The notes below the pieces were generated by a model that saw only the letters and a list, made by a program, of their open reading frames with translations, was not told where the DNA came from and searched no databases. DNA of 41,373 nt. It comes from a virus. Lineage: Duplodnaviria; Caudoviricetes. Position numbers and translations under genes: made by a program. This document shows, one piece after another, positions 3,098 through 40,904 of the stretch (position 1 is the stretch's first letter; every line of letters starts with the position of its first letter). The DNA is taken from positions 1 through 41,373 of the IMG/VR virus record IMGVR_UViG_3300005611_000067; one strand, given 5' to 3'.

Positions 3098-3133
3098 GGA
3101 ACCTAGGGGAGAAATCCCCTAGGTTTCTTTTTT
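3098..3133 (+). terminator. Intrinsic terminator after the capsid gene (T-phi-like position)
   Basis: GGAACCTAGGGGA-GAAA-TCCCCTAGGTTTC hairpin followed by a T run. Confidence 0.9.
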
Positions 3134-22978: not shown

Positions 22979-25626
22979 GTTTATATGACTGGTGGAAAAT
23001 GAAGAACGAGCCATCTGAGCAAGAAAGGCTTAGGCAGGAAAAAAACCAAAGAATATACGATATGATGGCTGGATCCATAGCAGAAGAAACAGATGAGAAT
23101 ATGGAAGAGTTTAATAAATTTGTTTCAGACCTTGTTGTTTATACTAGTTTTTATGAAAGCGTAGATCCCAGTATGGTTCAAAGATCTCAATTAGAACAAG
23201 AGATGAAAGAACAACAAGCCCAGTCAAGACAAGAATCATATGATTTTATAAACAAAATGTTAGACAATTCTGGTGGATTAACAGAAAACCAAAAGAAACT
23301 ACGCAAAGACCTTGGTCCACTGGCTCCTGTTATTGGTTTCGATTTAGAGACGGGAAACCTTGTTTCTAGAGATATTGATCCGCAGCAAGCGTTTGATCAA
23401 GCATCCTACGGAAGACTCAACCAACTTGCTTTATCTGCTGTTGAAACCCCATCTATCTATAGAACTACTAGATTATACACAATAGGAGAACAATACTTTG
23501 GAACTCTTGAGAGAGAGAACCCAGAGTTGTTTCCTCGCTTAACCCCAGAAGAAGAAGCATTTAGAAAACGATCAACTGCCTATGATTCAACTTGGGCAAA
23601 GATCCTTGACTACATTCCTTTTGTCGATAATAGACGAGAGGGAATGGAAGATGTAGATACAAACTTCTTTTTATTTGAAAATATTAGAGCCTTGTTTGGC
23701 GAAGAGGGGATCCTTCCAACTCAAGTATTTGGGGAGCAAAAACAAGAAGGATGGGATGCTAAAAAGGCTTGGGAACTCATGCAAGAATACCACCCAGACT
23801 ACTCTTCATATCTAGTAAATGTTGCTGGAGTAAATGTAGAACAATTGTTAAGGACACCAAACCATTGGGAGTTTAGATACGCTATCAATGAAGCCGTGGA
23901 TATGTCCCACATCCAAGCAATACTTTCATCTAGAGCAAGAGATCAAAACTGGGTTGAGAATAAATTAGATTTTGCAAAACAGTTCATCATTCAGAGTTTT
24001 AGATCTGCCGACATGCCTGTAGAACTTGCCCTTACCCTAGCATCAGCAGGCGGCTACGCAGGCGTAGGAGCCGTTACAACACTAGTCAGAGCAAACAAAG
24101 CAAGATCTTTAAGCAGAGGAGTATACAGTGCTGCTAGGATGGCTGACAATGCCAGAGATCTAGCCAATGCCACAAAGAAAACAAACTCATTGTTGCAGAA
24201 TCTAAGAACATACCAAGCACTCATGGTCCCAAGTAACTGGGGTTATATTGTAACCAACAGTATCCTATCAAGAAGACTGGCTGTTGAAGGTGTACAATGG
24301 GGATCAGAGGTTACTGCGGGTAAGTTCATGACTTCGGTTTTCACTGACTTTGGGCAAGGTCTTGTAGAAGGTGCCTTGTACAATATACAAAACCAGATTA
24401 CAGACAATATGGAATGGAGCAGTGGAAGACTTTGGGGTGAAATGCTTGAAGAGGGTGTTGGTCAGATAGTATTTGGAAAAGTTTTCAGGGGAATCAACTT
24501 GGGATTGGGACAGGCAATTGAAGGAATAGGTGCTGATCAAATTGGTCCAGCACTTTGGGATAAGGCAACCAGAAAAATAGACCCTGCTCTCAAGCAAATG
24601 ATTGAGTTACAAGCAAACCTCAATGTGAAGGATGTACCAATTGAGGTTATCCAAGAGACGTATTTCAATGCATTCCTTCAACTCCATCAACACTTCGCTT
24701 GGCAGCAGATGACTGGGGATAAGTCAATGCCATTAAGTGTAATACGATTGCAGTCAGCCCTTCAACGACAAGCAGCCAACAAGGGTGTCAACATTGATCT
24801 CAATTCCATAATCAGTTCAGTGTTTGATTCTGTCCCAGAAGGCGTGCAATTGACAACAGAAGAAGCAGCCATTCTTCTGCATACCCATACAGTAGATCGT
24901 CTAAGAGAAAGAAACATTCGTGTTGGTGATGAAGACATGAAGGCTCTACAAAGGGCTATTTCAATTGAGTTCATTATGAGAAATAAACTTGAGGAAAAAG
25001 GCATCTCAGAAACCGACCTTATGAGATTGGCATCAACAGATATAGATGCCTTTAAAGAATTGATTCAAGATACTTATGAAGAGATTAGTGCTGATCCTGA
25101 AGCAATCACAGAAGCAGCAGAAAGAATTACTGAAATATATAAATCAGCAAGAGAAAAGACAAATCTACCAGACTTAAAAATAGATCTTAATAGTTATAAT
25201 GAAAATGCACAAGCCTTGGAGTTCTTGGATATCTTCAGAGATGATGATGGTGTTATTGATACAGAGTTGGCTAAAGAAGGCATTACCATGGTTGAAAATC
25301 TAAATGCCAACATACACAAAAATACATTAAGTATTGTAAGAAGATTGATAGAAGAAAGGGAAGCAACACAAGCGACTAGACCTGCTCCTGAGGCTGCTCC
25401 TGAGGCTGCTCCTGAGGCTGCTCCTGAGACTGCTCCTGAGACTCCTAAACCACCAGCAAGTGAACAAGCCGAGGGTACGCCTACATTACCCTTAGAACAA
25501 ATCACAACACCTGTAGATGAAGGTGTTTCGGAAACAGATACCCCACCAATTGATCTAACTAAAACAGAACCTCAATCTGACTTTGATCAGTTTATTGCTG
25601 ATGCAAGAAAACGAACGGATTGTTAA
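22975..25626 (+). CDS. Internal virion protein (883 aa)
   Basis: Helical with Gly/Ala-rich amphipathic segments and a Pro/Ala/Glu linker near the C-terminus. ATGA-coupled to the upstream gene. Confidence 0.65.
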   Translation: MSLYDWWKMKNEPSEQERLRQEKNQRIYDMMAGSIAEETDENMEEFNKFVSDLVVYTSFYESVDPSMVQRSQLEQEMKEQQAQSRQESYDFINKMLDNSGGLTENQKKLRKDLGPLAPVIGFDLETGNLVSRDIDPQQAFDQASYGRLNQLALSAVETPSIYRTTRLYTIGEQYFGTLERENPELFPRLTPEEEAFRKRSTAYDSTWAKILDYIPFVDNRREGMEDVDTNFFLFENIRALFGEEGILPTQVFGEQKQEGWDAKKAWELMQEYHPDYSSYLVNVAGVNVEQLLRTPNHWEFRYAINEAVDMSHIQAILSSRARDQNWVENKLDFAKQFIIQSFRSADMPVELALTLASAGGYAGVGAVTTLVRANKARSLSRGVYSAARMADNARDLANATKKTNSLLQNLRTYQALMVPSNWGYIVTNSILSRRLAVEGVQWGSEVTAGKFMTSVFTDFGQGLVEGALYNIQNQITDNMEWSSGRLWGEMLEEGVGQIVFGKVFRGINLGLGQAIEGIGADQIGPALWDKATRKIDPALKQMIELQANLNVKDVPIEVIQETYFNAFLQLHQHFAWQQMTGDKSMPLSVIRLQSALQRQAANKGVNIDLNSIISSVFDSVPEGVQLTTEEAAILLHTHTVDRLRERNIRVGDEDMKALQRAISIEFIMRNKLEEKGISETDLMRLASTDIDAFKELIQDTYEEISADPEAITEAAERITEIYKSAREKTNLPDLKIDLNSYNENAQALEFLDIFRDDDGVIDTELAKEGITMVENLNANIHKNTLSIVRRLIEEREATQATRPAPEAAPEAAPEAAPETAPETPKPPASEQAEGTPTLPLEQITTPVDEGVSETDTPPIDLTKTEPQSDFDQFIADARKRTDC
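25382..25446 (+). repeat. 12-bp tandem repeat (CTGCTCCTGAGR, about 5 copies) encoding APEA/APET
   Basis: cctgctcctgaggctgctcctgaggctgctcctgaggctgctcctgagactgctcctgagactcct read directly. Confidence 0.95.
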
Positions 25627-25638
25627 CAAGGAGATAGT

Positions 25639-28600
25639 ATGGACCCATGCTCACCAGAACTTATACAAAAAATTCTTGATGAAAGACGCACTCAACTAGA
25701 AGGCAGAGGATTGAATGCAAATCAAATTGCAGCAGACCTTGCCCATGTGGAGGCAGCACTTAGCGATCCTGCTGGATATGCTAGATTGGTGCAACCCAAA
25801 GGGCTGAATGCAGATGAGCAACGAGAATTGGATGGACTGATTGAAAAGGCAAGACGAGGCTTTGATGCCGGTATACCAAGAATTTCTAGTATTCTTTCAC
25901 AAGGTGAGACTGAAAGACTTAGAGTGTTGGTCTATAAGAAATCAAACAGAGGGGGTCCACAACCAAAAATAACTAGGTTTGAAACAGCAGAGAGCATGAT
26001 CCAACGATATCGTGATTCTGGAGATGAGGTAAAGGCAAACCGTTTAGCAACTCTTCTTAGAAAAGCAAGAGAAAGAGCCGAGGCAAATAACAGACGAGGG
26101 CAAGACAATGCTAAACTTAATGAACTAGAGTTGAAATTGGATGATCTAAATCAAGATATCGACACAATTGTAATGCTTCTAAATCAAAACAAGCCTAAAG
26201 CAATCAACGAAAACAGACTAGAGTTGGTTAAGTTAGGCAAAAGATTACAAAGAATCAATAATAAAATTGACTCTGAAAAAAATTCTAAACGAAAGGGAGC
26301 ATTAAAGAAGCAAGCGTCAGAGATTGTAAAGAAAATAAAAGAACTGGAAAAGAAGTCTAATAAAGTAGTAGAGCAATTTAAACAAAGAAACCCATCAGAA
26401 AGAAAAGCATTGGCAGAATTGATCAAACAAAAGCGAGATCTTATTGATCAGTTGTCAAAAGACTTTGGTATCTACCGAGGAGTTTCCTTGGACTCATTCA
26501 TTGACAGTGTTCCACAAACTCTAGCAAGCATAGCCAAAGACATAGAAGAAATGAAGAGAGACATTTCATTCAGGGAAGATGTCATTGAAGAAATGTTCAA
26601 GGAAAGTAATACAATTGAATCAGCCTTGCTTGCTAAAGTATTGGGTGAGAATTTTGTAATGCAACGGGTGGACAAAAACAAGCCGCTTACCAGAAAAAAG
26701 GTCAATGAGTTGTTCAAAGAGTGGAAGAGCCTTTCCTTTGAGTATGCAGGATCTAGAGAAAAATTCATTGCGGATACTGATTTTGCAGATGAGGAATCCC
26801 TTGATGAACTTGCTTCATCACTGAATGATCCAACAATAGAGGGGATCATTGACGAAACAGATGGACAGATGCTACTGATACCTGACAAGTCACTGGCAGA
26901 AAGCATAAGAGATTCTACACCGGGCAAGATCCCAAGCAAGAATGTCCTTGGAGAAAAAGACGGAGAGGTTCTCTATCGAGCATTAAAGTCATTGCTATCT
27001 CGAATGGAAACATATCGAAGACTGCCCCAATTTGGAAGGTTTGTCGATATAGCATTTATTGCCAAGATCATCAGCCAAATCCCAAAGATTGATGACGTAG
27101 ATGCTACTATATTGTTTAAGAAGGCAATTCAGTGGAGAGATTCGGATACCAGTGCTGGAGACATGTCATATGATGAGATTCTCAGTATAACAAAAACTCT
27201 GCTAAAAGAACTAGGATTGGATGAAGATGTGCTATCATCCCCAGAGTTTACCGATCCAGTAAACTGGAAGAAGAACACAAAAGTCTTTTCATTGGGTCTT
27301 GAAACATATTTGGATGGTGATAAAAACATCCACACCGTCATCTTTACAGAAGAGGGCAGGGAGAAAGATCCTAGTTCTGTTCGATCAAGTGCAGATGGTG
27401 TGGCATTTACCAGCGAAGAGTTGATGGATCTATTGGTTGAGATTGAATCAAAACAAAACCAAGGCATGGCTTTGGTAACATATAACGGCAACGCATTTGA
27501 TCTATATGCCATTGCTCAAAAGATTGGAACACGAGAAGCAACCGAAATGGCATCTAGGATCATGCTTCGTAGTTTCGATATATTCCAAAACATGAGGGCA
27601 TTCCGAAGCACAACGGAGAACTCAACAAATGCCACTAGCCAGATGTATAAGTTGGGCAATGTGGCATCAGCAGTAGGTGTATCTGAGTTTAAGACAGAAG
27701 ATAACTACATGCCTCCATTGTTGAAGAAAAGATCTCTTGATCAGACAGTAACCATTGAAGATCTTTCTGCAATACCAGATGAAGTATTGTCCGCAGAAGA
27801 AAAGGAAATAATTGTCGAGGACATCAACAAAGTAACTTCTGATCAGGCAAGACAAAGACTGGAAACATATTCACTGGCTGATGGAGCATTAAACATTCAA
27901 GTGTTCAGGGCCATGCAGGAAAGAAACGGTGCTTCTGTCAGAGTCAGACACACCAACAGGAACGTCTATGCTGTAACTATTGAGGAACTAGTGCCTACTT
28001 GGGCATCCGTTACACAACACTCATCTACCTATAATGGCATATCTGAATCTGTTGCACAGTGGACTACAACAGCATTAGGTAGAACAATGGCAACGGCATT
28101 TGATAGTTTCCTTGGACAAGAAGAAAACAACAAAACGGTCATAGATCTTGACAAAGCCCAACCAATTGTAATGGCTCTTATGGCTGCATCCTTAAGATTT
28201 GCGCCAAACACTGAAGCCTTTGGAAGAGTTCTATCTAAGGTTATTAAAGAAGGTCTTACGCCAGAACAACAGGCATACATGACAGCCGTTAAGATTTCCA
28301 AGTTAAATGCGGAGGCTGCTAAGGAAATCAACAAGAGTACTTATCTAAGCAACGACAGTAGACTTCCAATTGGGATTATAGGAGCAGATAAAAACGGATT
28401 GATTCCGGGCATTGAGTTTGCAGAAGGGAATGAAAAAGACCAAAGGAACCAATACATCAGTGCTGTTGTTGATGGATTCAAGGAACAACTAGGTAGATCC
28501 TATCAGAAAAGACTTGCTGAACTTGCAGAAGCAGAGAACTTCAAGCCGCAAGAATCAACAAACCGAGAAGATGACTACATTATGGAATTCCTCATTGCCA

Positions 28601-31600
28601 CAATCAAGAAGTACAGTGATTTGAAAGACTTTGATATTGTTGATTTTGGAAATGGAAACATTGACTATGCCGTAGCAACAAGCCTTGGTCGTGGTATTGC
28701 ACAAATTATTACAAACCACCGGCAAGGATTTAAACCATCATTAAATTCTAAACCTAGTGAAGAAATAAGTGCTAGGGCTAATAGACACCTATTGTCATCA
28801 GGCGGTAAACCAGATAGGAAGGTATATCAGTCTCTTATCTTTAGGGCACCGGTTGTTGGTGAGGTCCATCATATTTTCCCAAGGGCATTGCCAGACATTG
28901 AATCTGCATTTGTAGATTACAGATTAAGACAACGCATTCAACATATTCTTAATTCCGACATCGACGATCCAGAGTCTGTTATCAATGCCTACAAGAATCT
29001 CACAGAAGATCCAGATGAAGTCTTAACCGATAGAAGACCAGATCTGTTATCAATGGGCTTGAATCCAAATACAAATAACAGGGCTTTATCTAATAAACTA
29101 CCAACAATTGAAGATCTTAGGGCAAGGACAATTGAAGCACTATTGGATATGCCAGAGTTGCTACTTCTTTGGCAACACGACTCAATGACATATGCACCCG
29201 GAGCAAAAATATTCTTGGATGAAAATACCAAAAATAGAATGTTCAAGGAAGATGCACTTTCTCCGGGGTCGTTGTCAGCAACCGCAGTTCTTTCGGGTAT
29301 GGGTCCATTGTTTGCTCATGTCAAAACATATCCATTTTTAGGCGAAGATATTTTATATCAATCACTTGAAAGAGGAATCAAAGCATATAAAGAGGGTGGT
29401 TTTAGTAGAAGTAATTACTTTGACTTCAACATGAACGGTGCCCACCACATGGCTGCTTTGTCTTTGATGTACCTTGACAAAGATGGATCTAGGTTGGATG
29501 ACATGTTAAGAGATATTGGTCTTGAGGATGAAGCAAAAGATAGATACCAAGAAGCCGTAACTCTCTTGCGTGATAGTCTTGATCAAATTGAAAAGGTATA
29601 TATCTCACAGAAAGATACAAATGGAACGGAGCAGGCACGAAGACTAAAAGAGTTTTTAACAGAATCTGCTCAAGAAGCAAGAGAAGGTTTTAAGAATGCA
29701 GTTATTGCTAGACTATATTCTGGTGGGTTGAAAGCAGTTAGAGAGGGTATTGAAAATTGGATGTCTGAATCCAAACCAGTAGGACTTACGGGAGTTGATG
29801 CAGATTTTATTGCTCAACACTTGATGAACACCAAAGCATATCTTCAATTCAATATTCTAGATGAAGCATTGGGTGGTGTTACTTCTGAGCAAAGACAACA
29901 ATTAGCAGCGGCAATATCAACAGAATTGCGGGATGTATACCAAAAAGATTGGACAAAAAATCTTAGACAAAAGGCTAAGGAAAATGGTTACACTATAACC
30001 GCAGAAAGAATGTTCTCCTTAAATTTCTTACAAGAAGCCATTGAAGAAAGAATTAAATTTATTGCTGAAATTAGAAAACTTGATATTAAAACAGTAAGAG
30101 CCGAATATCAAGAAAGAATTGATAAAGCAATAGAGTTTGTTGGTGGTTTAGAAAAAACTGAAGATGGGCTTATTAAACTGGGAGATGAGCAAGCAAGGAA
30201 ACTTAATATTATTCTAATGGGCAAAGAAGAATGGTATAAGACAACACCTACTCTAATAGCATTGAATGCATTGCAAAGAGTTCCCTTTAGATTAAGAGGT
30301 ATCGAGAATGATGGCATAAGAGGTAGAATACAAGAACATTCCGATATCCTTGGCCGTCGCATTGAGGAATCGGATATTCTTGGTTTTGAAGATTTCAATG
30401 TCTATTTTACAATGGGGTTTGATTCAAGTGGTGGGCGTGGGTATTTTGTTGGGCATAAGTTCCAACCTATCAACTCAGAACTGTCATCAGTCGAAAGAGA
30501 AAATACCCCCGGTGGAAAAGATGATCAGAAGTATGCCATGTGGGGATTCAATAAAAACAATCTTAGCAAATTGAGTAGAGATAAGGCTGAACTTGAGGTG
30601 CAAAAACTTATGGCAAGACATATTGCTATGCAACTATCACCACGATATGCACCAAAGTTTGGTAACTACAACATGGCTGAATCCGAAACAAGAGAAGGAT
30701 TTATGCAAGAGTGGTATGAGCGATCAACTAGAGAAGACCAATCATATATTGACTATATTCGCAATGAACCAAGTTTATCAAAAGACGCAATTGATTTAAG
30801 AAGAAGCAATGGTGGCTTGCTTAAGAATGCAATCCGATTCTTGGTTGACCCATCTAGAACACTTAATACTGCAATGGATATTGAATACAACCCCGGATCA
30901 GAAAAAAGCATCAAGGGGCTTGGTGCATTCAGGCCAGAGTATGCAGCCATTCCTTGGCAGGAAAGAGGCATCATGTCACTTCAACAGATGTTCTATAATA
31001 AGTTGATCCAAGATGCCAAAGCAGACAAGGTAGCTAGAATGGACAAAGAGATAACTTCTGTCAATGATGTTATTCCATCTGAAGCAAGAGGATATGCCAA
31101 TAGGTACAAAAACTCCAAGGCTCCATATGTCTATCCCACACCAGTTGATGGCATCTATGAGATGACAACTGGAAACACATCTAGACGATTGGAGTTGAGA
31201 GCCAACAACCTTCAATACACTCTTGAAAAATTTGGCATGACCCATGGTCATAAAGATCTTGTAGAAGAACAGAACTGGGCAAAACTATATACCATTTGGA
31301 AAATCAACAATCTTGCAATCAGTCCTTACGTTAGAAAAATGGCTAAACTTAAAAACAAGCCGGGACAAGAAAGAAAAGAATATGTATTGGCTCAGTCACA
31401 CGCATTGAACATGTATCAAGCATTGACCCAACTATGGTCATTTCACGACAGCGTATCGGCTGAATCAAGATCTTATCTTGAATTTGGCAAGATGATTGGT
31501 ATTGAGGGCAAGACATTACAAGAAAAACATTACATTGACATGTTGTTTTATTTTGCTAAAAGAGGAGTCAATGTCCTTAAGCCAATTACACTAGGTCTTG

Positions 31601-34600
31601 AGCCAACAAACAACATCGTTGCTTCTGGAGAACCTTCATCAGACGAACGCTCTACAAGAATAACAACTCTTACAGTGCAGAGTATCGACTCCTTACAGAT
31701 GATTTACAATGTTGTATATGAAACTGAAGGCAGAAAAATAGCAACAGAGTACATGAAAAAGGTAGACCCAGAAAACTTTAAATCGCTGGAAAAGGATGGT
31801 AATGGCTTTGTACTATTGAGTTCTGTACCAAAAGAACATCAGCAAGCAGTATTTAGAGAGATCTTCACATCGGATAGAACGCAAAGAAGAGAAGAGTTTG
31901 ATCTTTACTTGTTCATTGATGAAGTTACACAAGAAACTCAAATTGGAAATAAAATAGATTTTGACAATGCTAAGAATCCTAAAGCAAGGGGACGGGATGG
32001 TGGAATGCCTAGGTTCGATACTTCACGAACCAATGGCAATACAATCTACAAACTAACACCAGAAGATTTGCAAAACATGTTTACCCAACTTCAAAACCAA
32101 GTATTGTTGTATAACACAGAACTAGCAACAGCACTTGGAACAGATATTGGCATGGTAGACAATGAGAATATGGTGTTTATGAATGCAGAACGAAGACGAT
32201 TCTACGAAACACAGAGAATGGCCTATGCTGATGAAATGGATATCCTTTCAATTCTGCACTCTCGCTCTACTTCTCCATTAAGAACAACATACAATGTGGG
32301 AATGAGTGGCGATTTTGGTTTGCCTGTTGAAGTATATGATGCTGGTTTTTATGTTGCAGGAAAAGATGCTGACCCAAGAGGCACCGCATTTGATAGAGCA
32401 TGGCAGGGTAAAATCTCAAGAGCAATTGAGACGGCAAGGATGTATGGACTTACAGAAGAAGCAGAAAGACTTGAAACTCTATTAACAAGCGACAACAAGT
32501 ATCTTATTCCAGCAATCATCATCATGTCTCAAGTTGAAGAAAGAGAAGCAAGACTACAAAGATTAAGATCTTATGTTGGATCTGCTATGGATAATAAGCA
32601 GTTTGAAAAGATTTATCGAGATGCTTCTTTATTTATAAATGATTATTTGAACGCTGTTACAAGAGATGTACCTAGAAACAAATTCTCCCATCAAGCCAAA
32701 AGATTTGTTGAGTTGAATGGACCAATTGAAGTTATAAACATTAGTCCAAAGGTTCTTAAGGCTATTGGTGTTGAGGATACCTCTAGCAGAGAAGAAGTTC
32801 AACTCGCAAAGCAAGCCCTTGAGAATGCCAACAAACAATACACCCAAGAGGCTGGCATCTTGTTAACAGACAACAATATTGAGACACTTGTCGAAGACGA
32901 CGGTCTTACTGATGCATTCCAATCAAATGGACAACATATTGAAATACAAATCTCTGCACTTGTTCAACAAGGAGCAATAACAGAAGAAACTGCCGAGTTG
33001 TATAGAGGCATGTTTGGAATCATTCTAACTCACAACAAGGAGTTTGCAAACAACTTATCAATTGTTTTAGACCCTAGCCTTGAGCGTGCTGGTTTAAGTC
33101 AGAGATATGGCGATAGGTTTGTAATCAAACTCAACCCACAACTATTAAAGCGTAGAGCCGTACCTGAAGCATTGGAAGTCATGGCACATGAGATTTCACA
33201 CATTGCAAGGCTCAGGCATTTGGAAACCGAAAGTGAAGCATATCGTGGATTTATTGCAGCATTCAGAACCAAAGAAGGAAAAGAAGCAATTACCGACATG
33301 GTAACTTCCATGTATGCTGGAGACAAGGGTGAAATAAATGCATTGCTTGATCACTATACCACAAATGCAGAAGAATTTCTTGCAGAGTGGGGAGCATTTG
33401 TTTTAATATCAAGAACCATCAATAACAAGAGTGTCATCAACAATATTAACAAACTCAGAGAAAAATACAATGTTGTTGATGAGGCAACCAGTTGGTGGGA
33501 GCGAGCATTCAATAGAATAAAAAGAATTGCCTCGTCCATAACACAAAGAATGCAGGTATTTAGACAATCAAATCGCAAAGCAATGGAGTATATGGACAAC
33601 CTTGTTGAAGTCATGTTTAACTTTGGCAATACATACAGCACATCTAGGGCTGCGGTTGACAATATAACAGGAACATTCGGCACTCCTCTTGTAGAATTGG
33701 AGCGAGGAACCGGAATAATAGACAGTGATAAAATTGTTGACCTTTTGGGCAAGTACAATACAGTGGATGCACTAGAATCAAGGGTGGAATATCTTAGTGA
33801 AGAGGAGCAAGCCACACTTATAAATTACAAAAACGAGTTGGCTGAACTACCAGCAAATACAATTCTAGGTTTGGACACAAAAGAGTACATCGAAACCATA
33901 AATAGACTGGTTCAATATGGTAGTGAGACTGGTCAAGTTGAGATTACAAGAAAACCAAGAAGCAAAGATGAAAGAATAGCACTTGCTACCTTTGTTTTGG
34001 AGAGAATCTCAAAGATTAGAGGCGTAAGACCAGATAATCTTTCTGTAATTTCAAGACTTGTAAGGGATATGCCCAAGGCAACAAGAGTAAGAAACTGGAT
34101 TATTGAAACATTCTTGACCGGAACAGCAAGAAAAGTCGGAGAACAAGGTAAACTTGGCGGAGGTTTGGGTGGTGGTAGCAGTGCAAACCTTACCTATGCG
34201 TCTGCCGAGTCAATTTTGGTTGCACTTGGCTTCATTATGAACACGGTTAAGGGTGGTGGAATCTTCAGTGAAAAGGTTGGGGGCATTCTTCAAGACAAAA
34301 ACTACATTGAACAATGGTCAAGACCTGTTGTATTGATGTCAGAAAGAATTAAAAACTCCTATAACCAAAGAGAAGCACAATTAATTCGCAGTGCAGCCTT
34401 CTATTATATGCTTTTAGGAAAGCCATCTGATAGAAATCAAATACCAATTGGTGAAGATCTTACAAATGAGATGTTTGAACTTGCCAAACAGTATGCTGAA
34501 ACATATGCAAGCAACATTTCAAACTTTGTAGATCTTGCTGTAGAGTATGAAACCTACACTTCAAGCTTTGTCTCGCCTGAAGATATGATTGCTTTGAGAA

Positions 34601-37479
34601 TAAACAACACATTCTTTGAGAAAGATTCGGAAAGTGCTGGTAGATTTGAAGAAGCATTGTCCAAACTATACACCAAAAAGGTAGAAGACAACATGAAAGA
34701 TGAGGGCATGGTAGATGTATACTCCCTCTACCTGAGCGGTGGCATGTTTAGTATCAGCGATGCATATTCAAACAACAGCCCAATTGAGGAATTCTACAAT
34801 AAAATCCAAAGTGAGATAATCAAACTAAATGAAGCACAAAGACTTATTCTCGATGAAGTTGAGTCTTTTGCTTTTGAGTTATACAAAGAAAAGAACCCAA
34901 ATACCACTTTGACTCTTAGTTCGTTTAAGTATTCCTTAAAGTTAAACACAACAAACAGCAATTGGCAAGCCGCCAAAGAGCATCTTTTAGAAGCCGCAAC
35001 TAGAATCCTAAGACAAGCAAACTCTGGTAAATCATATAGTACTATCTTTAAATCTTTAAATTCAAGTCAAAGAAATACGATAATTAAATACCTACAGGGT
35101 AACTTAAACAATCAAGTTAGTGAATCGGCGGTACGACAAGAACAAGATATTGTAAGAGGCAGACTGCCATACATCTTTTATGGTTCTACAAAACCACCAA
35201 AGTATTTTAAAAACAATGTTCTTGACAAAAAGAATTCTCCTATTAGGTTGAGAGTACTTAATTTAATAAACTCACAAGGTCATAGTACTGTTATGCCTAA
35301 TGCCCAGTCATTGGATGTAACTGCCAAGGATATCTTTATCGAGGCAAGTGGTTTGAATCCAAACGAACGAAGCATCCTTAGAAATGGGTTTTCAACAGAT
35401 CTAAAATCAATCATTGTAGGTATGGAAAGAACAATGGCAAGATCTGCCTATAACCGAAAAGCCATCCAAGACCTGTCTGGAGTCAGGGGAGTTAGTTTTG
35501 CAAACCTCATTGAAGCAATTAAAGGCGCAAAGCAAGATTCCGATTGGGATAGTGTATTGGATGAGGTCCAGAGAAAACACGATCTTGCAATTGGTGCTGC
35601 AACTAGAGTAATTGAAACTCAAGGATCGGGTGAAGAAAATTTTGGATTGCGTGCAGCAGACTTCTTTACCACTGCACTATGGGGTCCAAACCGAAACGCC
35701 GCAGCATTAATCAACGAAGGTACATTAAGTACCGTTGTTACCACAATCTATGGAGGCAATCCCATAGCATTCATGAAAGATGTGGTCTCTGGTATATTGC
35801 CCTTATTTACAAATGTCATCTCACGAAAACTTGGAAATAGATTGCTTAACAATTCAATATTCACATCTGTCCCTCAAGCCTTGTTCGATATCGACACAGC
35901 AACAAGAGGATTCTTAGAACATCAATTAATTACTAAAGATGAAGAAGAAGCCGTCAGCAGTCTAGATCAAAATGGATTCAAAAAAACAAAACCAATAAAG
36001 GTAAAAGGTGCTATTGATTCTTTTTGGAAAAGAATAAAAGACTCTCATCTTATAGTAGAACCTGCATTAAGAGCCGCAATGATGCGACAAGCACAGGTAG
36101 CATTGATTAGAAGAATCAACAAATTAGAGAAGTATCTTGATTTTATCGAACAATATGATGGTCCAAGAGGACCAGAAATGTACAAGAGATTGGAAGTAGA
36201 AGTAGGAACTACTAGGATCTTGGATCTTTGGGGATCTGAAAAACTGGTTGTCCAATACATGCATGAGTCTGGTTTGCTTGATCGAAAAACAATCAAGGCT
36301 CTAAAGTACATTGTAACTGAACTTAACGGAATCTCGAAAACTGGAATATTGGGAAGAGAGTTCTTTGATATCAGCGAAATCCAAAGAATGATTGAAGAAT
36401 CTGTAACATCAAGACTGTTTGACAAGATGCCAAACTCTGGTGGGCTGACAAAGAACGATCTATACGAAGCATTGAATGCTGTTGGTAAATTCCAAGTCTC
36501 ATTGATGAGACAGGCTATTACAGAAGGAAATACAATGGATAGGCAGACAGAAGGTCGTCCTATCCTATCATTCATGAATCTGTACAGATCGTTTCCAAAG
36601 TTGTTTGTAACCCAACATGCCTTAGAATCCTATGGCAGAACAACAGGTGGGATCCTTGCAACCAAGGTTATAACAGCAGGGTTCTTTGATATTATTTACA
36701 ATCTTGCATTGTTGTGGGCTGTTGGTGTCATTACAGAAGATGACATAGAAAGATGGAAGAAAGAAGGACCAAACATAAAAGACTATACGCTTCTCACAAC
36801 CGTTGTTGCACGAAACCCATTCTTTACGACAAGAATGCTACCAAGCATCGTTGCATCACTACTTCCCATTATTGCTGGCAAGACCATTGCTGGTGATAAA
36901 ATCTCAATCTATGACATGACCTTGGCAGGACTGCCTCCAGCAGCCGCCGCAATCTTAAGCGGTGTAGCAAAAAGTATTCAAATTGGTCAAGATGCCATCA
37001 ATAGAGATGGTGAATTTTCATTAGGGCAGGCTACTGATTTTGCGGCTAGGTTAATTCCATTTATTGACCCAATTACAAGATACTATATTGCATCAGTCAT
37101 TGACCCAGAATTCAAACAAAACAAGAATAAAACCAATAGAGGAAGGAACACAAGCCCCATAAATGTAGGTAACACCTTGATGGATAATCAGTTAGAGACA
37201 GAAAGAAGCCTATTTAGGGCAATACTGAACGAAGCATTCCCAACAGGAATGAAGAACCTAGTCCAACCAATGCCTTCGTTTATGGACGCTCAGATGCCTC
37301 CTATGCCGTTCCAGCCTCCCAAGGCTACCGAACTACTCCAAAACCTACAAAGTCCCGCAGAGGGCGTCTCAGAGCCTCCTGCGGCACCTCAGCCACAACC
37401 AACCACAACTCCTAGCCCAATGGAGGGACCAAGGAGTATCAATCCTGCCAAACCACCAGAACAGTTAGGAGGACCGTAA
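25639..37479 (+). CDS. Giant multidomain ejection protein (3946 aa): degenerate exonuclease-like domain, putative virion RNA polymerase, HExxH zincin domain and gp16-like C-terminus
   Basis: TYNGNAFD and YSLAD exo motifs. FDFNMNGAHH, DRY and REGFKNAVIARLYSGG polymerase motifs. AHEISH...EEFLAE. Terminal RLIPFID resembles the ends of internal virion protein D. Confidence 0.75.
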   Translation: MDPCSPELIQKILDERRTQLEGRGLNANQIAADLAHVEAALSDPAGYARLVQPKGLNADEQRELDGLIEKARRGFDAGIPRISSILSQGETERLRVLVYKKSNRGGPQPKITRFETAESMIQRYRDSGDEVKANRLATLLRKARERAEANNRRGQDNAKLNELELKLDDLNQDIDTIVMLLNQNKPKAINENRLELVKLGKRLQRINNKIDSEKNSKRKGALKKQASEIVKKIKELEKKSNKVVEQFKQRNPSERKALAELIKQKRDLIDQLSKDFGIYRGVSLDSFIDSVPQTLASIAKDIEEMKRDISFREDVIEEMFKESNTIESALLAKVLGENFVMQRVDKNKPLTRKKVNELFKEWKSLSFEYAGSREKFIADTDFADEESLDELASSLNDPTIEGIIDETDGQMLLIPDKSLAESIRDSTPGKIPSKNVLGEKDGEVLYRALKSLLSRMETYRRLPQFGRFVDIAFIAKIISQIPKIDDVDATILFKKAIQWRDSDTSAGDMSYDEILSITKTLLKELGLDEDVLSSPEFTDPVNWKKNTKVFSLGLETYLDGDKNIHTVIFTEEGREKDPSSVRSSADGVAFTSEELMDLLVEIESKQNQGMALVTYNGNAFDLYAIAQKIGTREATEMASRIMLRSFDIFQNMRAFRSTTENSTNATSQMYKLGNVASAVGVSEFKTEDNYMPPLLKKRSLDQTVTIEDLSAIPDEVLSAEEKEIIVEDINKVTSDQARQRLETYSLADGALNIQVFRAMQERNGASVRVRHTNRNVYAVTIEELVPTWASVTQHSSTYNGISESVAQWTTTALGRTMATAFDSFLGQEENNKTVIDLDKAQPIVMALMAASLRFAPNTEAFGRVLSKVIKEGLTPEQQAYMTAVKISKLNAEAAKEINKSTYLSNDSRLPIGIIGADKNGLIPGIEFAEGNEKDQRNQYISAVVDGFKEQLGRSYQKRLAELAEAENFKPQESTNREDDYIMEFLIATIKKYSDLKDFDIVDFGNGNIDYAVATSLGRGIAQIITNHRQGFKPSLNSKPSEEISARANRHLLSSGGKPDRKVYQSLIFRAPVVGEVHHIFPRALPDIESAFVDYRLRQRIQHILNSDIDDPESVINAYKNLTEDPDEVLTDRRPDLLSMGLNPNTNNRALSNKLPTIEDLRARTIEALLDMPELLLLWQHDSMTYAPGAKIFLDENTKNRMFKEDALSPGSLSATAVLSGMGPLFAHVKTYPFLGEDILYQSLERGIKAYKEGGFSRSNYFDFNMNGAHHMAALSLMYLDKDGSRLDDMLRDIGLEDEAKDRYQEAVTLLRDSLDQIEKVYISQKDTNGTEQARRLKEFLTESAQEAREGFKNAVIARLYSGGLKAVREGIENWMSESKPVGLTGVDADFIAQHLMNTKAYLQFNILDEALGGVTSEQRQQLAAAISTELRDVYQKDWTKNLRQKAKENGYTITAERMFSLNFLQEAIEERIKFIAEIRKLDIKTVRAEYQERIDKAIEFVGGLEKTEDGLIKLGDEQARKLNIILMGKEEWYKTTPTLIALNALQRVPFRLRGIENDGIRGRIQEHSDILGRRIEESDILGFEDFNVYFTMGFDSSGGRGYFVGHKFQPINSELSSVERENTPGGKDDQKYAMWGFNKNNLSKLSRDKAELEVQKLMARHIAMQLSPRYAPKFGNYNMAESETREGFMQEWYERSTREDQSYIDYIRNEPSLSKDAIDLRRSNGGLLKNAIRFLVDPSRTLNTAMDIEYNPGSEKSIKGLGAFRPEYAAIPWQERGIMSLQQMFYNKLIQDAKADKVARMDKEITSVNDVIPSEARGYANRYKNSKAPYVYPTPVDGIYEMTTGNTSRRLELRANNLQYTLEKFGMTHGHKDLVEEQNWAKLYTIWKINNLAISPYVRKMAKLKNKPGQERKEYVLAQSHALNMYQALTQLWSFHDSVSAESRSYLEFGKMIGIEGKTLQEKHYIDMLFYFAKRGVNVLKPITLGLEPTNNIVASGEPSSDERSTRITTLTVQSIDSLQMIYNVVYETEGRKIATEYMKKVDPENFKSLEKDGNGFVLLSSVPKEHQQAVFREIFTSDRTQRREEFDLYLFIDEVTQETQIGNKIDFDNAKNPKARGRDGGMPRFDTSRTNGNTIYKLTPEDLQNMFTQLQNQVLLYNTELATALGTDIGMVDNENMVFMNAERRRFYETQRMAYADEMDILSILHSRSTSPLRTTYNVGMSGDFGLPVEVYDAGFYVAGKDADPRGTAFDRAWQGKISRAIETARMYGLTEEAERLETLLTSDNKYLIPAIIIMSQVEEREARLQRLRSYVGSAMDNKQFEKIYRDASLFINDYLNAVTRDVPRNKFSHQAKRFVELNGPIEVINISPKVLKAIGVEDTSSREEVQLAKQALENANKQYTQEAGILLTDNNIETLVEDDGLTDAFQSNGQHIEIQISALVQQGAITEETAELYRGMFGIILTHNKEFANNLSIVLDPSLERAGLSQRYGDRFVIKLNPQLLKRRAVPEALEVMAHEISHIARLRHLETESEAYRGFIAAFRTKEGKEAITDMVTSMYAGDKGEINALLDHYTTNAEEFLAEWGAFVLISRTINNKSVINNINKLREKYNVVDEATSWWERAFNRIKRIASSITQRMQVFRQSNRKAMEYMDNLVEVMFNFGNTYSTSRAAVDNITGTFGTPLVELERGTGIIDSDKIVDLLGKYNTVDALESRVEYLSEEEQATLINYKNELAELPANTILGLDTKEYIETINRLVQYGSETGQVEITRKPRSKDERIALATFVLERISKIRGVRPDNLSVISRLVRDMPKATRVRNWIIETFLTGTARKVGEQGKLGGGLGGGSSANLTYASAESILVALGFIMNTVKGGGIFSEKVGGILQDKNYIEQWSRPVVLMSERIKNSYNQREAQLIRSAAFYYMLLGKPSDRNQIPIGEDLTNEMFELAKQYAETYASNISNFVDLAVEYETYTSSFVSPEDMIALRINNTFFEKDSESAGRFEEALSKLYTKKVEDNMKDEGMVDVYSLYLSGGMFSISDAYSNNSPIEEFYNKIQSEIIKLNEAQRLILDEVESFAFELYKEKNPNTTLTLSSFKYSLKLNTTNSNWQAAKEHLLEAATRILRQANSGKSYSTIFKSLNSSQRNTIIKYLQGNLNNQVSESAVRQEQDIVRGRLPYIFYGSTKPPKYFKNNVLDKKNSPIRLRVLNLINSQGHSTVMPNAQSLDVTAKDIFIEASGLNPNERSILRNGFSTDLKSIIVGMERTMARSAYNRKAIQDLSGVRGVSFANLIEAIKGAKQDSDWDSVLDEVQRKHDLAIGAATRVIETQGSGEENFGLRAADFFTTALWGPNRNAAALINEGTLSTVVTTIYGGNPIAFMKDVVSGILPLFTNVISRKLGNRLLNNSIFTSVPQALFDIDTATRGFLEHQLITKDEEEAVSSLDQNGFKKTKPIKVKGAIDSFWKRIKDSHLIVEPALRAAMMRQAQVALIRRINKLEKYLDFIEQYDGPRGPEMYKRLEVEVGTTRILDLWGSEKLVVQYMHESGLLDRKTIKALKYIVTELNGISKTGILGREFFDISEIQRMIEESVTSRLFDKMPNSGGLTKNDLYEALNAVGKFQVSLMRQAITEGNTMDRQTEGRPILSFMNLYRSFPKLFVTQHALESYGRTTGGILATKVITAGFFDIIYNLALLWAVGVITEDDIERWKKEGPNIKDYTLLTTVVARNPFFTTRMLPSIVASLLPIIAGKTIAGDKISIYDMTLAGLPPAAAAILSGVAKSIQIGQDAINRDGEFSLGQATDFAARLIPFIDPITRYYIASVIDPEFKQNKNKTNRGRNTSPINVGNTLMDNQLETERSLFRAILNEAFPTGMKNLVQPMPSFMDAQMPPMPFQPPKATELLQNLQSPAEGVSEPPAAPQPQPTTTPSPMEGPRSINPAKPPEQLGGP

Positions 37480-37739
37480 TGGCAAAGAAGAAAGGTGCAA
37501 TGAAAGGTTGCAATATCGGAAACAAATGTAAAGATCCCAAGGGTGGGCTTACCGCCAAGGGAAGAGCCATGATCAACCGAAAGACAGGCTCCAACCTCAA
37601 GCCACCCCAGCCGGGAGGGGGTCCACGAAAGAAATCCTTCTGTGCCCGCAACCTAGGACAAATCAAGAAATTCAATATTGATTGTAAAAAGACTCCTGAT
37701 AAACGAGCATGTAAGGCAAGAAGAAAGTGGGCGTGCTGA
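37479..37739 (+). CDS. Small basic Cys-containing phage protein (KDPKGGLTAKGR...RKKSFCAR...ARRKWAC family)
   Basis: AGGAGG SD. The motif recurs in uncharacterised aquatic phage proteins. Confidence 0.85.
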   Translation: MAKKKGAMKGCNIGNKCKDPKGGLTAKGRAMINRKTGSNLKPPQPGGGPRKKSFCARNLGQIKKFNIDCKKTPDKRACKARRKWAC

Positions 37740-37740
37740 C

Positions 37741-37899
37741 ATGGCAAAAAAGAAAGCAAAACGAGACGCCTGCTACTCCAAAGTAAAAAGTCGTTACACC
37801 AAATGGCCCAGCGCATACGCCTCCGGGGCACTGGTAAAATGCCGAAAGGTCGGAGCCAAGAACTGGGGAAAGGGTAAGTCCAATGGCAAAAAAGGCTAA
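37741..37899 (+). CDS. Small basic phage protein (DACYSKVKSRYTKWPSAYASGALVKCRKVGAKNWG family), 52 aa
   Basis: ATG two bases after the upstream stop. The motif is recognisable from cyanophage-type hypothetical proteins. Confidence 0.85.
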   Translation: MAKKKAKRDACYSKVKSRYTKWPSAYASGALVKCRKVGAKNWGKGKSNGKKG

Positions 37900-38113
37900 C
37901 TTCGATCAAGAAAAGAAAAAGGGATTGCATGGATGGTTTAGTCGCAATCAAGGCAAGGGATGGGTGGATTGCAAGACAGGAAAGACATGTGGGAGGAAGT
38001 CTGCCAAGGGAGGAAGCAAACGACCATATCCAGCGTGCCGACCAACCAAAGCCATGTGTTCGTCAGCAAAGAACCGCAAGAAAGGACCAAAGAGAATTTC
38101 TTGGAAAAAATAA
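37883..38113 (+). CDS. Small basic phage protein (GLHGWF...WVDCKTGKTCGR...RPYPACRP family)
   Basis: Overlaps the upstream gene and carries a recurrent phage motif. Last gene of the late block. Confidence 0.85.
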   Translation: MAKKANFDQEKKKGLHGWFSRNQGKGWVDCKTGKTCGRKSAKGGSKRPYPACRPTKAMCSSAKNRKKGPKRISWKK

Positions 38114-38350: not shown

Positions 38351-40141
38351 ATGTATAGATACCTGTTAAACAATGTGTTGCGTGCATCCAAGTTCATGCA
38401 ACGGGTCGCCGAACATACCGGCGTCGATGACCGCGATGGGTTGCAGCAGTTGTTGCAGATGGGTCTCGATGATGGCAACCTGAGCATGTTCTCCCTCTCA
38501 GGTAGTGATGCGATCGACGAGGCCGGTGAAGTTGGTAACAACTACTCATCGTTGTTCATTCGGAACAACGATGTCGAGTCCACCGGCAAGACCACGGCTC
38601 GTCTTCAGCGTAGTGCCGCAGCCACGAGGCGGCGGTCGATGGCACCTGACGGTGTTCTGGACCTTGACTTGCCAGATGCCTTCAAGGATGCTGTGACGTA
38701 CTTGTCGGAGACTGAGTTCGCTCCGAACAAGTTGGTGCTTCAGGCGATGCGGACTCTGGCTGCTGAGGGGTTCTTTGACCCCAAGCGGAACCAAATGGAA
38801 CTCCTGATGCTTCAGGAGTTCACGAACTTTGGTGAGGGTAATTACTACCTCCCATTGTTCCCAGACTTCCGCTATCGTCTGTACACTGACTCGCGCGGCG
38901 TTGCCTCCTATCAAGGTGGTGATGCCCACCGTGCGTCGTGTGACTTCGCTGAGAAGTTGCCTGCTTCGGACGATGATATCCAGATCTTTCTGGAAGTCAT
39001 CAAGAAGGAGTACGGTGTCACGGAGGACAACTACGAGGACATCCTTGCAGATCCCGTGAAGTTTGTCAGGGACTGCAAGGACAGCAAGCCCTTCTGTGCA
39101 TTGCGGGCTGCTGAGGCAATTCGCGAGATGAAGGAAGAGGGTTGTTCTGGCTACATTCTCCAGCAGGACCAGAGTGCATCTGGTCCAGCGTGGTATGGCT
39201 GGTTCACTGGTGACGAGGCTCTGTGCCATCTCACCAACCTCTACCCTTCAGACTCGCCGCAGTCGTTGTACACTGCAATGTCTGCCTACGTCAACGAGGC
39301 ACGTCTCCTGCCTGTTCATGTCAGGGACAACCCGATGTTCGTTGATCGGAAGACCGCCAAGACGTTTGCTGTTCCGATGATCTACTCGGCAGCAAACCCC
39401 TCGCTTACTCGGGGTGCAATTCTCAAGAACCCGCAGACCAGCCCAATCCAGTATGTGGACAATGCTGGTGATTACATAGTGGGATCTCTTGAAAAGGTCT
39501 CCAAGTTGGACCTCAACGAGAGGTACGCTGGTGTGTGGCAGGCTCTTGGATGGTCTCTGGCAGTTCGTGTTGCCAGTGATGTGGCTCGGGCATACGAGAC
39601 TTCGTTGTTCGGGTCCAAGGCGGCTGCTGGTCTTACCAGCCGTCTTCGTCCTTCCATGATGGCAATCAAGCAGGCATCTCGTAACCGTCGTAATGATGGT
39701 CAAGTCCTTAACTGGACTTCGCCATCGGGATGCCGTGTCTTCAACCGCGGCATGGTCGTCGACATGGATGCCAAGCCGTGGGATGTGAGTGTGACCTTCG
39801 ATGGCAAGCGTCATCGAATCTCATTCCAGCCACTTCACGCAGCGTCCTCAGATGCTGCGGCAGGCCCGAATGTCATCCACTCTGTGGATGCTAGTGCAAT
39901 CCACTTCATGGCTCTCATGGCGGCAGAGGCAGGGATTCGCATTGCGCCAATCCATGACTCCATCGGAACTCCCATCGCCCACGCTCGATGGGCTCGGCAG
40001 GCCTTCAAGGCTTGCATCAGTCGGGTGGATCAGAAGTTCTTGGATCGTGAGATCCTGATTCCCTCAAAGGTCACGCCCCTGAATTATCCGGGTGCTGACC
40101 GCAAGCGGTTTGCCAAGTCCCGTCACATCCTTGGTTGCTAA
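38351..40141 (+). CDS. Compact single-subunit T7-family DNA-directed RNA polymerase (596 aa)
   Basis: DFRYRLY (DxRGRxY), motif A QDQSASG, motif B RKTAKTFAVPMIYS, WTSPSG, PNVIHSVDA and motif C IHDS. AGGAG SD at 38337. Confidence 0.93.
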   Translation: MYRYLLNNVLRASKFMQRVAEHTGVDDRDGLQQLLQMGLDDGNLSMFSLSGSDAIDEAGEVGNNYSSLFIRNNDVESTGKTTARLQRSAAATRRRSMAPDGVLDLDLPDAFKDAVTYLSETEFAPNKLVLQAMRTLAAEGFFDPKRNQMELLMLQEFTNFGEGNYYLPLFPDFRYRLYTDSRGVASYQGGDAHRASCDFAEKLPASDDDIQIFLEVIKKEYGVTEDNYEDILADPVKFVRDCKDSKPFCALRAAEAIREMKEEGCSGYILQQDQSASGPAWYGWFTGDEALCHLTNLYPSDSPQSLYTAMSAYVNEARLLPVHVRDNPMFVDRKTAKTFAVPMIYSAANPSLTRGAILKNPQTSPIQYVDNAGDYIVGSLEKVSKLDLNERYAGVWQALGWSLAVRVASDVARAYETSLFGSKAAAGLTSRLRPSMMAIKQASRNRRNDGQVLNWTSPSGCRVFNRGMVVDMDAKPWDVSVTFDGKRHRISFQPLHAASSDAAAGPNVIHSVDASAIHFMALMAAEAGIRIAPIHDSIGTPIAHARWARQAFKACISRVDQKFLDREILIPSKVTPLNYPGADRKRFAKSRHILGC

Positions 40142-40668: not shown

Positions 40669-40699
40669 TAGTTAGTTGTAAAATAAAAGGGCAATGAAA

Positions 40700-40738
40700 T
40701 ACCCTACGTTACCCTACATTACCCTACTGTTACCCTAC
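40700..40738. repeat. Four TACCCTAC direct repeats at 10/10/11-bp spacing, at the start of a TAC-rich tract
   Basis: Copies start at 40700, 40710, 40720 and 40731. Confidence 0.9.
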
Positions 40739-40904
40739 TATACTGTTTACACTACCGTAGGGTACCCCGGACTGTACCTAAATTGTACTTTAGCGTACTT
40801 TCTTACCGCAGTTTACCGTAGTTTACCGTACTTTACTGGCTACAGGGGGTCGTACTTAGGGCTACCTGCTTTTTTCCATGTACGAGTTACATCTTACATC
40901 TTAC

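Follow-up and report, generated by a model that had tools for sequence, protein, structure and literature searches.

A probable RNA polymerase module with a permuted palm in the giant protein of a T7-like phage

The stretch analysed here, called the window, comprises 41,373 nt of Caudoviricetes DNA (record IMGVR_UViG_3300005611_000067, positions 1 to 41,373), and the subject of this study is a polymerase-like module within its largest predicted product, a giant protein of 3946 aa. All large open reading frames (ORFs) of the window lie on the plus strand, and it represents the virion half of a T7-like phage, with T7-type genes for scaffold, capsid, tube, nozzle, two fibres with T7 N-termini, and the small and large terminase subunits. 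Behind the terminases follow a gp14-like gene, the ORFs of 1672, 883 and 3946 aa, and then a 596-aa T7-type RNA polymerase (RNAP) (Table 1). The evidence presented below points to a probable virion RNAP with a permuted palm in this T7-like phage.

Table 1. Positions of the features discussed, given in window coordinates
Feature	Position (nt)	Strand	Details
gp14-like protein, 226 aa	17268-17948	+	T7_gp14, E = 2.9e-4; PHROG 805 internal virion protein, E = 0.0029 (gp14-led cluster); Cys 0
Ejection-cluster protein, 1672 aa	17960-22978	+	Cys 0
Ejection-cluster protein, 883 aa	22975-25626	+	Cys 1
Giant protein, 3946 aa	25639-37479	+	Final gene of internal-virion (ejection) cluster; sole Cys is C4
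DEDD-type 3'-5' exonuclease / RNase_H_2, aa ~545-760	27271-27918	+	PF13482, E = 5.7e-5, 23.6 bits (cut-off 22); atlas 0.92
Conserved block before the catalytic pieces, aa ~1000-1110	28636-28968	+	G1004, D1009, P1081, R1099 in 33-34 of 34 rows; matched in distant giants too
Candidate motif C, beta-turn-beta, aa 1176-1185, H1180-D1181 at turn	29164-29193 (HD 29176-29181)	+	45/45; motif C blocks of both phage RNAP families on H1180
Motif A, D1262 (putative metal ligand), G1267 at D+5	29410-29463	+	45/45 each; 2/3 profiles
Fingers subdomain, aa 1300-1413, with D1301 and motif B (R1348, K1352, Y1360)	29536-29877	+	Structural match to T7/mitochondrial RNAP
Thumb-start helix block, aa 1541-1552	30259-30294	+	Both phage RNAP families on A1541
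DxxGR-type motif, aa 1595-1600 (R1600), with palm-insertion block behind (W1635, E1683)	30421-30738	+	3/3 profiles; R1600 and E1683 45/45
Short specificity-loop-like stretch and pre-motif-C helix, aa ~1985-2030 (anchor 2010, D/E2017)	31591-31728	+	Both phage RNAP families on 2010
HExxH zincin-like motif, aa 2517-2521	33187-33201	+	3' of polymerase module; SprT-like, E = 8.4e-4, below cut-off
Inverted repeat, 24-bp arms, perfect 10-bp stem, 4-nt loop	38227-38278	.	~100 nt before the 596-aa RNAP gene; z -5.0
Stand-alone T7-type RNAP, 596 aa, canonical order	38351-40141	+	PF00940, E = 3e-14; N-terminus ~200 aa shorter than in the 810-aa enzyme

A complete genome, G001 (67,122 bp, terminal repeats), was 99.8% identical to the window over the 20.6 kb compared and carried no substitutions inside the giant ORF. 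Its additional genes encode a portal protein, PolA, a primase-helicase, RNR, ThyX and a second stand-alone RNAP of 810 aa (PF00940, E = 1.4e-83), which shared at most 28% identity with isolated phages (best of 2739 records). Related strains were present in contigs from all three sequencing runs examined, one each from an estuary, seawater and freshwater.

Homologues of the giant protein were obtained by word search (13 sequences), as 33 representatives with E ≤ 0.001 from 1.84 billion proteins, most of them ~4000 aa long, and additionally from virus records. The main alignment covered aa 1050-2179 in 45 rows (40 distinct at 90% identity, 23 at 50%; P0028 was left out), the majority of which were 16-27% identical to the window protein. 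Only ten columns were invariant: H1180, D1181, G1210, D1262, G1267, D1301, K1352, R1600, E1683 and G1760. Seven of these are polymerase residues (H1180-D1181, D1262, G1267, D1301, K1352 and R1600), and E1683 belongs to the palm insertion. Position 1348 was R or K throughout, Y1360 was kept in 43 rows and replaced by F in two, and the residue behind H1180-D1181 was S, C, A, G or Q and never Glu. Elsewhere, G1599 was found in 37 rows, W1635 in 41 and D or E at 2017 in 43, with D, E or G at position 1595.

A first-pass annotation, made from the letters alone, had proposed a virion-type RNAP at this place from three strings, FDFNMNG (aa 1261; D1262 at nt 29422), KDRYQ (aa 1300) and REGFKNAVIARLYSGG (aa 1348, nt 29680), taken as motif A, the DxY motif and motif B (R-x3-K-x7-Y). 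All three lie where described, and the assignments hold because their residues are invariant or near-invariant in the 45-row alignment. Four further strings are also correctly placed; their proposed roles did not stand. NTKNRMF (nt 29224) had been offered as the DxxGR equivalent, and its R1200 occurs in only 9 of 45 rows. Of the sites suggested for motif C, GFDS (nt 30415) is instead the start of the DxxGR-type motif, FHDS (nt 31441) has an Asp, D1937, kept in only 10 of 45 rows, and VQSIDS (nt 31675) is the pre-C helix, with no conserved HD behind it.

To place the motifs by profile, references were built from 45 relatives of the 810-aa RNAP, 14 of the 596-aa RNAP and 18 N4 mini-virion RNAPs (mini-vRNAPs); blocks of ~50 residues were cut around each reference motif, and each was searched over the whole 34-row profile of the giant family (~3950 columns). 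The best match fell in register for 12 of 17 blocks (810 family 5/6, 596 family 6/6, N4 1/5). Thumb-start was placed at 1541 by both profiles that had it and DxxGR at 1595/1596 by all three; motif A at 1262, the pre-C helix at 2010 and motif C at 1180 were each found by two of three, and motif B at 1348 by one of three. The 810 and 596 families were concordant in five blocks, and the N4 DxxGR block matched with E = 0.0019. As a control, the same 12 blocks were searched against five sister giants that lack the module, and none landed on a motif-like site (E 0.17-0.96). Whole-region profile comparison recovered the same pieces, again out of order.

The blocks in the giant protein run C(1180)-A(1262)-B(1348)-thumb(1541)-DxxGR(1595)-pre-C helix(2010), whereas single-subunit RNAPs canonically have thumb-DxxGR-A-B-preC-C. 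Motif C therefore sits 5' of motif A, and the T7/N4 order assumed in the first-pass annotation was abandoned; the HD dipeptide lies just before nt 29200, where that annotation had begun the polymerase region. The second catalytic Asp has a candidate in D1181 (45/45), at none of the sites put forward earlier. What stood of the original proposal is an RNAP module in a giant protein at the gp16 position, as conservation, profile blocks and the fingers match to T7 and mitochondrial RNAPs indicate; the canonical order did not. Because of this order we class the module as a permuted derivative of the T7-like family and not as an ordinary member. Its homology to T7-type RNAPs is almost certain, and the permuted order with D1181 as motif C is very likely.

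Three distant giants (G023, 5331 aa; G025, 5140 aa; G022, 4731 aa), at 16-18% identity, have the same block order and clearer motifs. G023 reads IHDS, YFDGNFNGIHH, RALFKKPVMTYLYG, RDGYAGRWY and PRIVHASDAAH in this order; the pre-C helix is near-canonical in G023 and G025, and neither has an HD behind it. The module piece of G025 gave PF00940 as its sole Pfam match (E = 0.023). In Pfam, 13 of 14 block-sized module pieces had no RNA_pol match; tblastn of the module against 50,697 phage records found nothing, and an HMM of 13 module sequences did not detect the two resident RNAPs. Atlas features gave an RNA_pol cluster (0.86) and an N4 vRNAP cluster (0.85), which serve as leads only. Searches for shorter or longer forms yielded two fragments in one case and none in the other, the latter not extending to proteins of 3400 aa and more.

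An internal tandem duplication of an RNAP was ruled out, since aa 1140-1530 and aa 1530-2070 do not resemble each other (E = 0.48). R1148 was ruled out as the DxxGR Arg, being kept in 38 of 45 rows while the profiles picked 1595-1600. D2053, considered as the motif C Asp, occurs in 41 of 45 rows within a D-x-x-G turn, is missing in the most distant members and was picked by no motif C profile.

Two structure models were computed, model 1 for aa 1050-2240 (35 rows; pLDDT 64.9, pTM 0.52), which is unreliable over the C and A region, and model 2 for aa 1130-2070 (47 rows; pLDDT 70.6, pTM 0.59). Model 2 has strands at 1176-1179 and 1182-1185 (model E47-50/E53-56; block pLDDT 83 and 75) with H1180-D1181 at the hairpin turn, and a strand that ends at D1262 and is followed by a helix (pLDDT about 65). 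Among 48,161 chains compared with VIA-align, only T7 and human mitochondrial RNAP reached Z ≥ 8 with both models (9.8 and 8.7 for model 1, 10.1 and 8.9 for model 2; rmsd 2.6-2.8 over 89-98 residues), values to be read with the tool's own warning that Z below ~13 can arise by chance for helical bundles. The first 21 rows of a further listing were all T7 or mitochondrial RNAPs. The match covers the fingers (aa 1300-1416 against T7 558-694) and is consistent residue by residue with the sequence motifs. N4 structures reached only Z 4.2-4.9; one weak alignment (Z 4.9, rmsd 6.4) laid model residues 172-885 onto N4 610-923, from the fingers to the pre-C helix. In the predicted arrangement, the separated pieces would assemble into one palm with D1181 beside D1262.

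The giant gene is the largest of an internal-virion cluster led by the gp14-like gene, as expected of a gp16-type protein, although neither Pfam, PHROGs nor PDB gave a match between the giant protein and T7 gp16. As in N4, it encodes a giant Cys-poor final ejection protein with a central RNAP and an HExxH domain behind it: a single Cys is present in 3946 aa, against none in the 3500 aa of N4 gp50 and 1.3-1.4% in the 596-aa RNAP and the terminase. The giant protein is likely packaged and injected. The ejection cluster comprises four genes against three in T7, and the terminase genes stand 5' of it (window 15382-37479), an order kept in relatives L011-L015.

The 596- and 810-aa RNAP genes lie ~6 kb apart in one genome (810-aa gene: G001 C1 21194-23626, L008:2194-4626, minus strand). 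The short enzyme evolves fast: the motif A Asp and HD were kept in all 14 aligned copies, while DxxGR and motif B vary and are eroded in several relatives. The 810-aa RNAP led to 35 virus records, and the module was matched in 16 of them; it occurred in 12 of the 17 records that are at least 90% complete, and every one of these 12 had an RNAP-like ORF of 595-663 aa directly 3' of the giant gene. The other five (G027, G028, G034, G035 and G036) lack the module and have no short RNAP ORF between the giant gene and the full-length RNAP; G027 is a linear record broken in that interval. Their giants, of ~3300-4300 aa, show homology over the HExxH part and the C-terminal part (hhalign 97% and 58% for the set G034, G036, G027, G035 and partial G030). 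The module-free sister giants of this set (L176, L177, L178, L183 and L186, respectively) carry one or two HExxH domains and ~1700 residues of other content.

In G007 the inverted repeat before the short RNAP gene is retained, its changes being paired (z -9.0). It is a candidate hairpin promoter, and an RNase III site would explain it equally well; T7 offers a precedent for such sites. In 11 of 13 genomes, perfect hairpins with a stem of at least 7 lay within 450 nt 5' of the short RNAP gene (about 0.1 each in shuffles), many of them terminator-like. Hairpins of the CCTAGG..CCTAGG type were found in 11 of 15 module genomes (1-8 copies) and in none of seven without the module. They were considered as promoters and dropped as probable terminators, because the window copy (3102-3133; GAAA loop) sits behind the capsid gene and before a T run.

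We propose with moderate confidence that the module is an early transcriptase injected from the virion, a permuted T7-type RNAP carried in the giant protein. The protein would be packaged as the largest ejection protein, enter the cell and begin to transcribe the incoming DNA at a time when no phage gene has yet been expressed. D1262 and D1181 would serve as the two metal ligands, K1352 and Y1360 would lie on the nucleotide-binding (NTP) helix, and G1267 and R1600 would admit ribonucleotides. Seen from the palm, the order corresponds to a circular permutation whose break falls between pre-C helix and motif C hairpin, with the thumb/DxxGR block additionally moved behind the fingers; the conserved block at aa ~1000-1110 is possibly the promoter-binding part. 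The first target may be the genome end that bears the hairpin and the 596-aa RNAP gene, the entry end being deduced from T7 gene order only. A cascade would then lead from the virion module through the 596-aa RNAP to the 810-aa RNAP, and transcription may also help to pull the DNA in. That the module is active is likely.

Several observations weigh against this proposal. Single block matches were weak (E 0.002-0.7), and their anchors had been spotted by eye before the block test; searches with the module sequence against Pfam, PHROGs and PDB returned no match for the window's module. Of the fold comparison foreseen in the first-pass annotation, the fingers match to T7 RNAP materialised; superposition was confined to ~98 fingers residues, the whole right hand was not recovered at pTM 0.52-0.59, and Foldseek searches of PDB and BFVD gave no match at E ≤ 0.001. 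Such a failure is expected when permuted chains are compared by order-dependent aligners, but it leaves the assembled palm a prediction. In model 1, pLDDT was below 50 for most of aa 1171-1266, with a helix in place of the hairpin of model 2. dN/dS against two close relatives was 0.03-0.28 in every segment of the giant gene, which speaks for the proposal, yet purifying selection on the module is no stronger than on the rest of the protein. The hairpins before the short RNAP gene in 13 genomes share no common promoter sequence. The co-occurrence of module and short RNAP may be a single event, because the five records lacking both look like one clade. A phage with two other RNAPs has a less obvious need of a third, and activity, packaging and early role are all deduced from sequence and context.

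The alternative that survives best, though unlikely, is an active nucleotide-polymerising enzyme other than an early transcriptase, which would make short RNAs or primers or act as a DNA-pulling motor, perhaps as a partner of the 596-aa RNAP. Invariant catalytic residues, combined with an N-terminal promoter-binding domain and a shared promoter that were not identified, would suit such an enzyme, as would the short specificity-loop stretch and the strict co-occurrence with the 596-aa RNAP. It accounts less well for a processive RNAP's thumb, DxxGR and palm-insertion blocks, all of which are kept, and for the precedent of N4, where a protein of the same plan transcribes early genes (PMC4496689).

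Somewhat less likely again is an RNAP relic with a DNA-binding or structural role, in which H1180-D1181 would not be motif C and the second metal ligand would be absent. The restriction of the solved-structure match to the fingers, the missing hairpin at 1176-1185 in model 1 and the lack of an HD behind the pre-C helix all agree with a relic. Yet both Asp residues, K1352 and R1600 remain invariant down to 16% identity while the HExxH and exonuclease motifs decay in some members, and two independent motif C profiles picked H1180 among ~3950 columns.

A third and improbable reading joins the exonuclease to the palm as a family-A-like DNA polymerase or an end-repair enzyme acting on the entering genome. 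A DEDD exonuclease does lie upstream, as in PolA, and R-x3-K-x7-Y is common to PolA and RNAP. However, the RNAP states known from work on T7 RNAP and Klenow are a Gly five residues after the motif A Asp (D+5), a small residue behind HD, the DxxGR Arg and the motif B Tyr, whereas in PolA a steric-gate Glu occupies D+5 and motif C reads HDE; the module has the RNAP state at each of these sites, with Gly at D+5 in 45 of 45 rows and HD never followed by Glu. Structural matches were to RNAPs, with no PolA among the 50 rows listed per model, and the genome has its own PolA. The exonuclease motif (D553, E555, D621, Y744 and D748) is not kept in all members. D553 is present in 27 of 34 rows and is Gly in the window record and G001 (window 27295-27297); this Gly is a private variant or an assembly error, because P0002, the close relative L023 and the relatives in all three runs carry Asp. 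Aa 2517-2521 read HExxH in 23 of 34 rows, EExxH in eight and a gap in three, which suggests that the zincin domain is not catalytic in every member. Both domains are held to be accessory because they are degenerate in some relatives.

Chance matches in a long helical protein would fit the lack of any significant single sequence or Foldseek match, but are very hard to credit, being largely refuted by the invariance, the concordant placement by two profiles, the 0/12 control and the top structural matches.

Returning to the injected early transcriptase, the broadest form of the proposal is evenly poised: T7-like phages of 65-80 kb, forming a clade that is widespread but uncultured, would inject a permuted-palm RNAP, the first in the T7/PolA superfamily and independent of N4, and run a three-RNAP cascade without the host enzyme. 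No description of the module was found in the literature, where subscription journals mostly lay outside coverage and the supplements of PMC5512222 could list such proteins. According to PMC13434306, the vRNAP of DEV and N4 stands in for gp16 within the ejection operon and is unique to Schitoviridae, and PMC5512222 confines N4-like virion RNAPs to N4-like phages or prophages. [quoted passage not shown] Polymerase-bearing ejection proteins would then have arisen more than once or spread more widely, and the module would show, as a natural experiment, how much rewiring the T7 active site tolerates. Its gain or loss is visible as a discrete step through the sister phages, which have the HExxH and C-terminal parts but no module. 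The domain lends itself to expression and assay in the absence of the phage and is possibly a new orthogonal RNAP.

Some features of the surrounding genes were recorded as well. The C-terminus of the 1672-aa protein (window 22400-22978) resembles a phage lysozyme in its pattern, with one unnamed PHROG match and no Pfam match. At the end of the 883-aa gene, a Pro/Glu/Ala repeat (window 25382-25440) differs in length by 48 nt from G001. The 1199-aa fibre (window 6736-10335) has 60 Cys in its N-terminal region, before the T7 fibre attachment domain at aa 403-486. Three small, very basic ORFs, alike at their starts, lie 3' of the giant gene (window 37479-38113), the first of them DUF6321 (E = 2.5e-19). 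A non-coding array of ~10-nt repeats of the TACCCTAC/TTTACCGTAC type (window 40698-40850) stands 3' of the short RNAP gene and a 157-aa ORF and is possibly an origin or regulatory region. The early region of G001 contains about four tRNA-like repeats (L008:7770-9110).

Of the known systems, T7 gp16 is, like the giant protein, the product of the largest gene of a cluster led by a gp14-like gene in a genome with T7-type virion genes. The giant protein is about three times longer, belongs to a four-gene cluster and has no sequence match to gp16, which itself is without a polymerase and depends on host RNAP, according to PMC13434306. With T7 and mitochondrial RNAPs (PF00940) the module has in common motifs A, B, C and DxxGR, the thumb-start and the pre-C helix, along with the fold of the fingers (98 aa aligned at Z 10.1 and rmsd 2.6). 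Unlike them, it lies within a 3946-aa virion-type protein, has a changed order and, with 12-20% identity over the stretch matched, falls below the level that Pfam detects.

The permuted-palm RdRPs of Birnaviridae and Permutotetraviridae also have motif C before motif A with the active site preserved, as exceptions to the order common to template-dependent polymerases (PMC8310298). They set a precedent for a workable order, by analogy only: those enzymes are RNA-dependent and belong to RNA viruses, whereas the module is of the T7 family, resides in a DNA phage and has its thumb/DxxGR block displaced too.

The closest parallel in protein plan is N4 gp50 of Schitoviridae (DEV gp71), a giant, Cys-free or nearly Cys-free product of the final ejection gene with an N-terminal part, an RNAP at ~aa 1000-2100 (998-2103 in N4), an HExxH domain behind it and a C-terminal part, as outlined in PMC5512222 and PMC13434306. 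N4 likewise has a second phage RNAP besides the virion enzyme: in its cascade, as given in PMC4496689, the vRNAP serves the early genes and a second, minimal phage RNAP, RNAPII, follows. The resemblance does not extend to order, since N4 mini-vRNAP is canonical (DxxGR 420 < A 559 < B 666 < C 950) and the module permuted. A special kinship with the N4 enzyme, suggested in the first-pass annotation, was not shown: the N4-specific plug, dom_2 and helical domains had no Pfam match at E ≤ 0.05, and the N4 profile, which is less diverse, placed 1 of 5 blocks against 11 of 12 for the resident families. The giant protein further differs in its additional exonuclease domain. The genome is also of another kind, with T7-type virion and replication genes on one strand and two single-chain RNAPs, the second enzyme being single-chain and the third a full-length phage RNAP, whereas N4 has a heterodimeric RNAPII and uses the host enzyme late. 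By this comparison, the module may be an RNAP that works in the manner of the N4 vRNAP, yet is a permuted derivative of the T7-like family.

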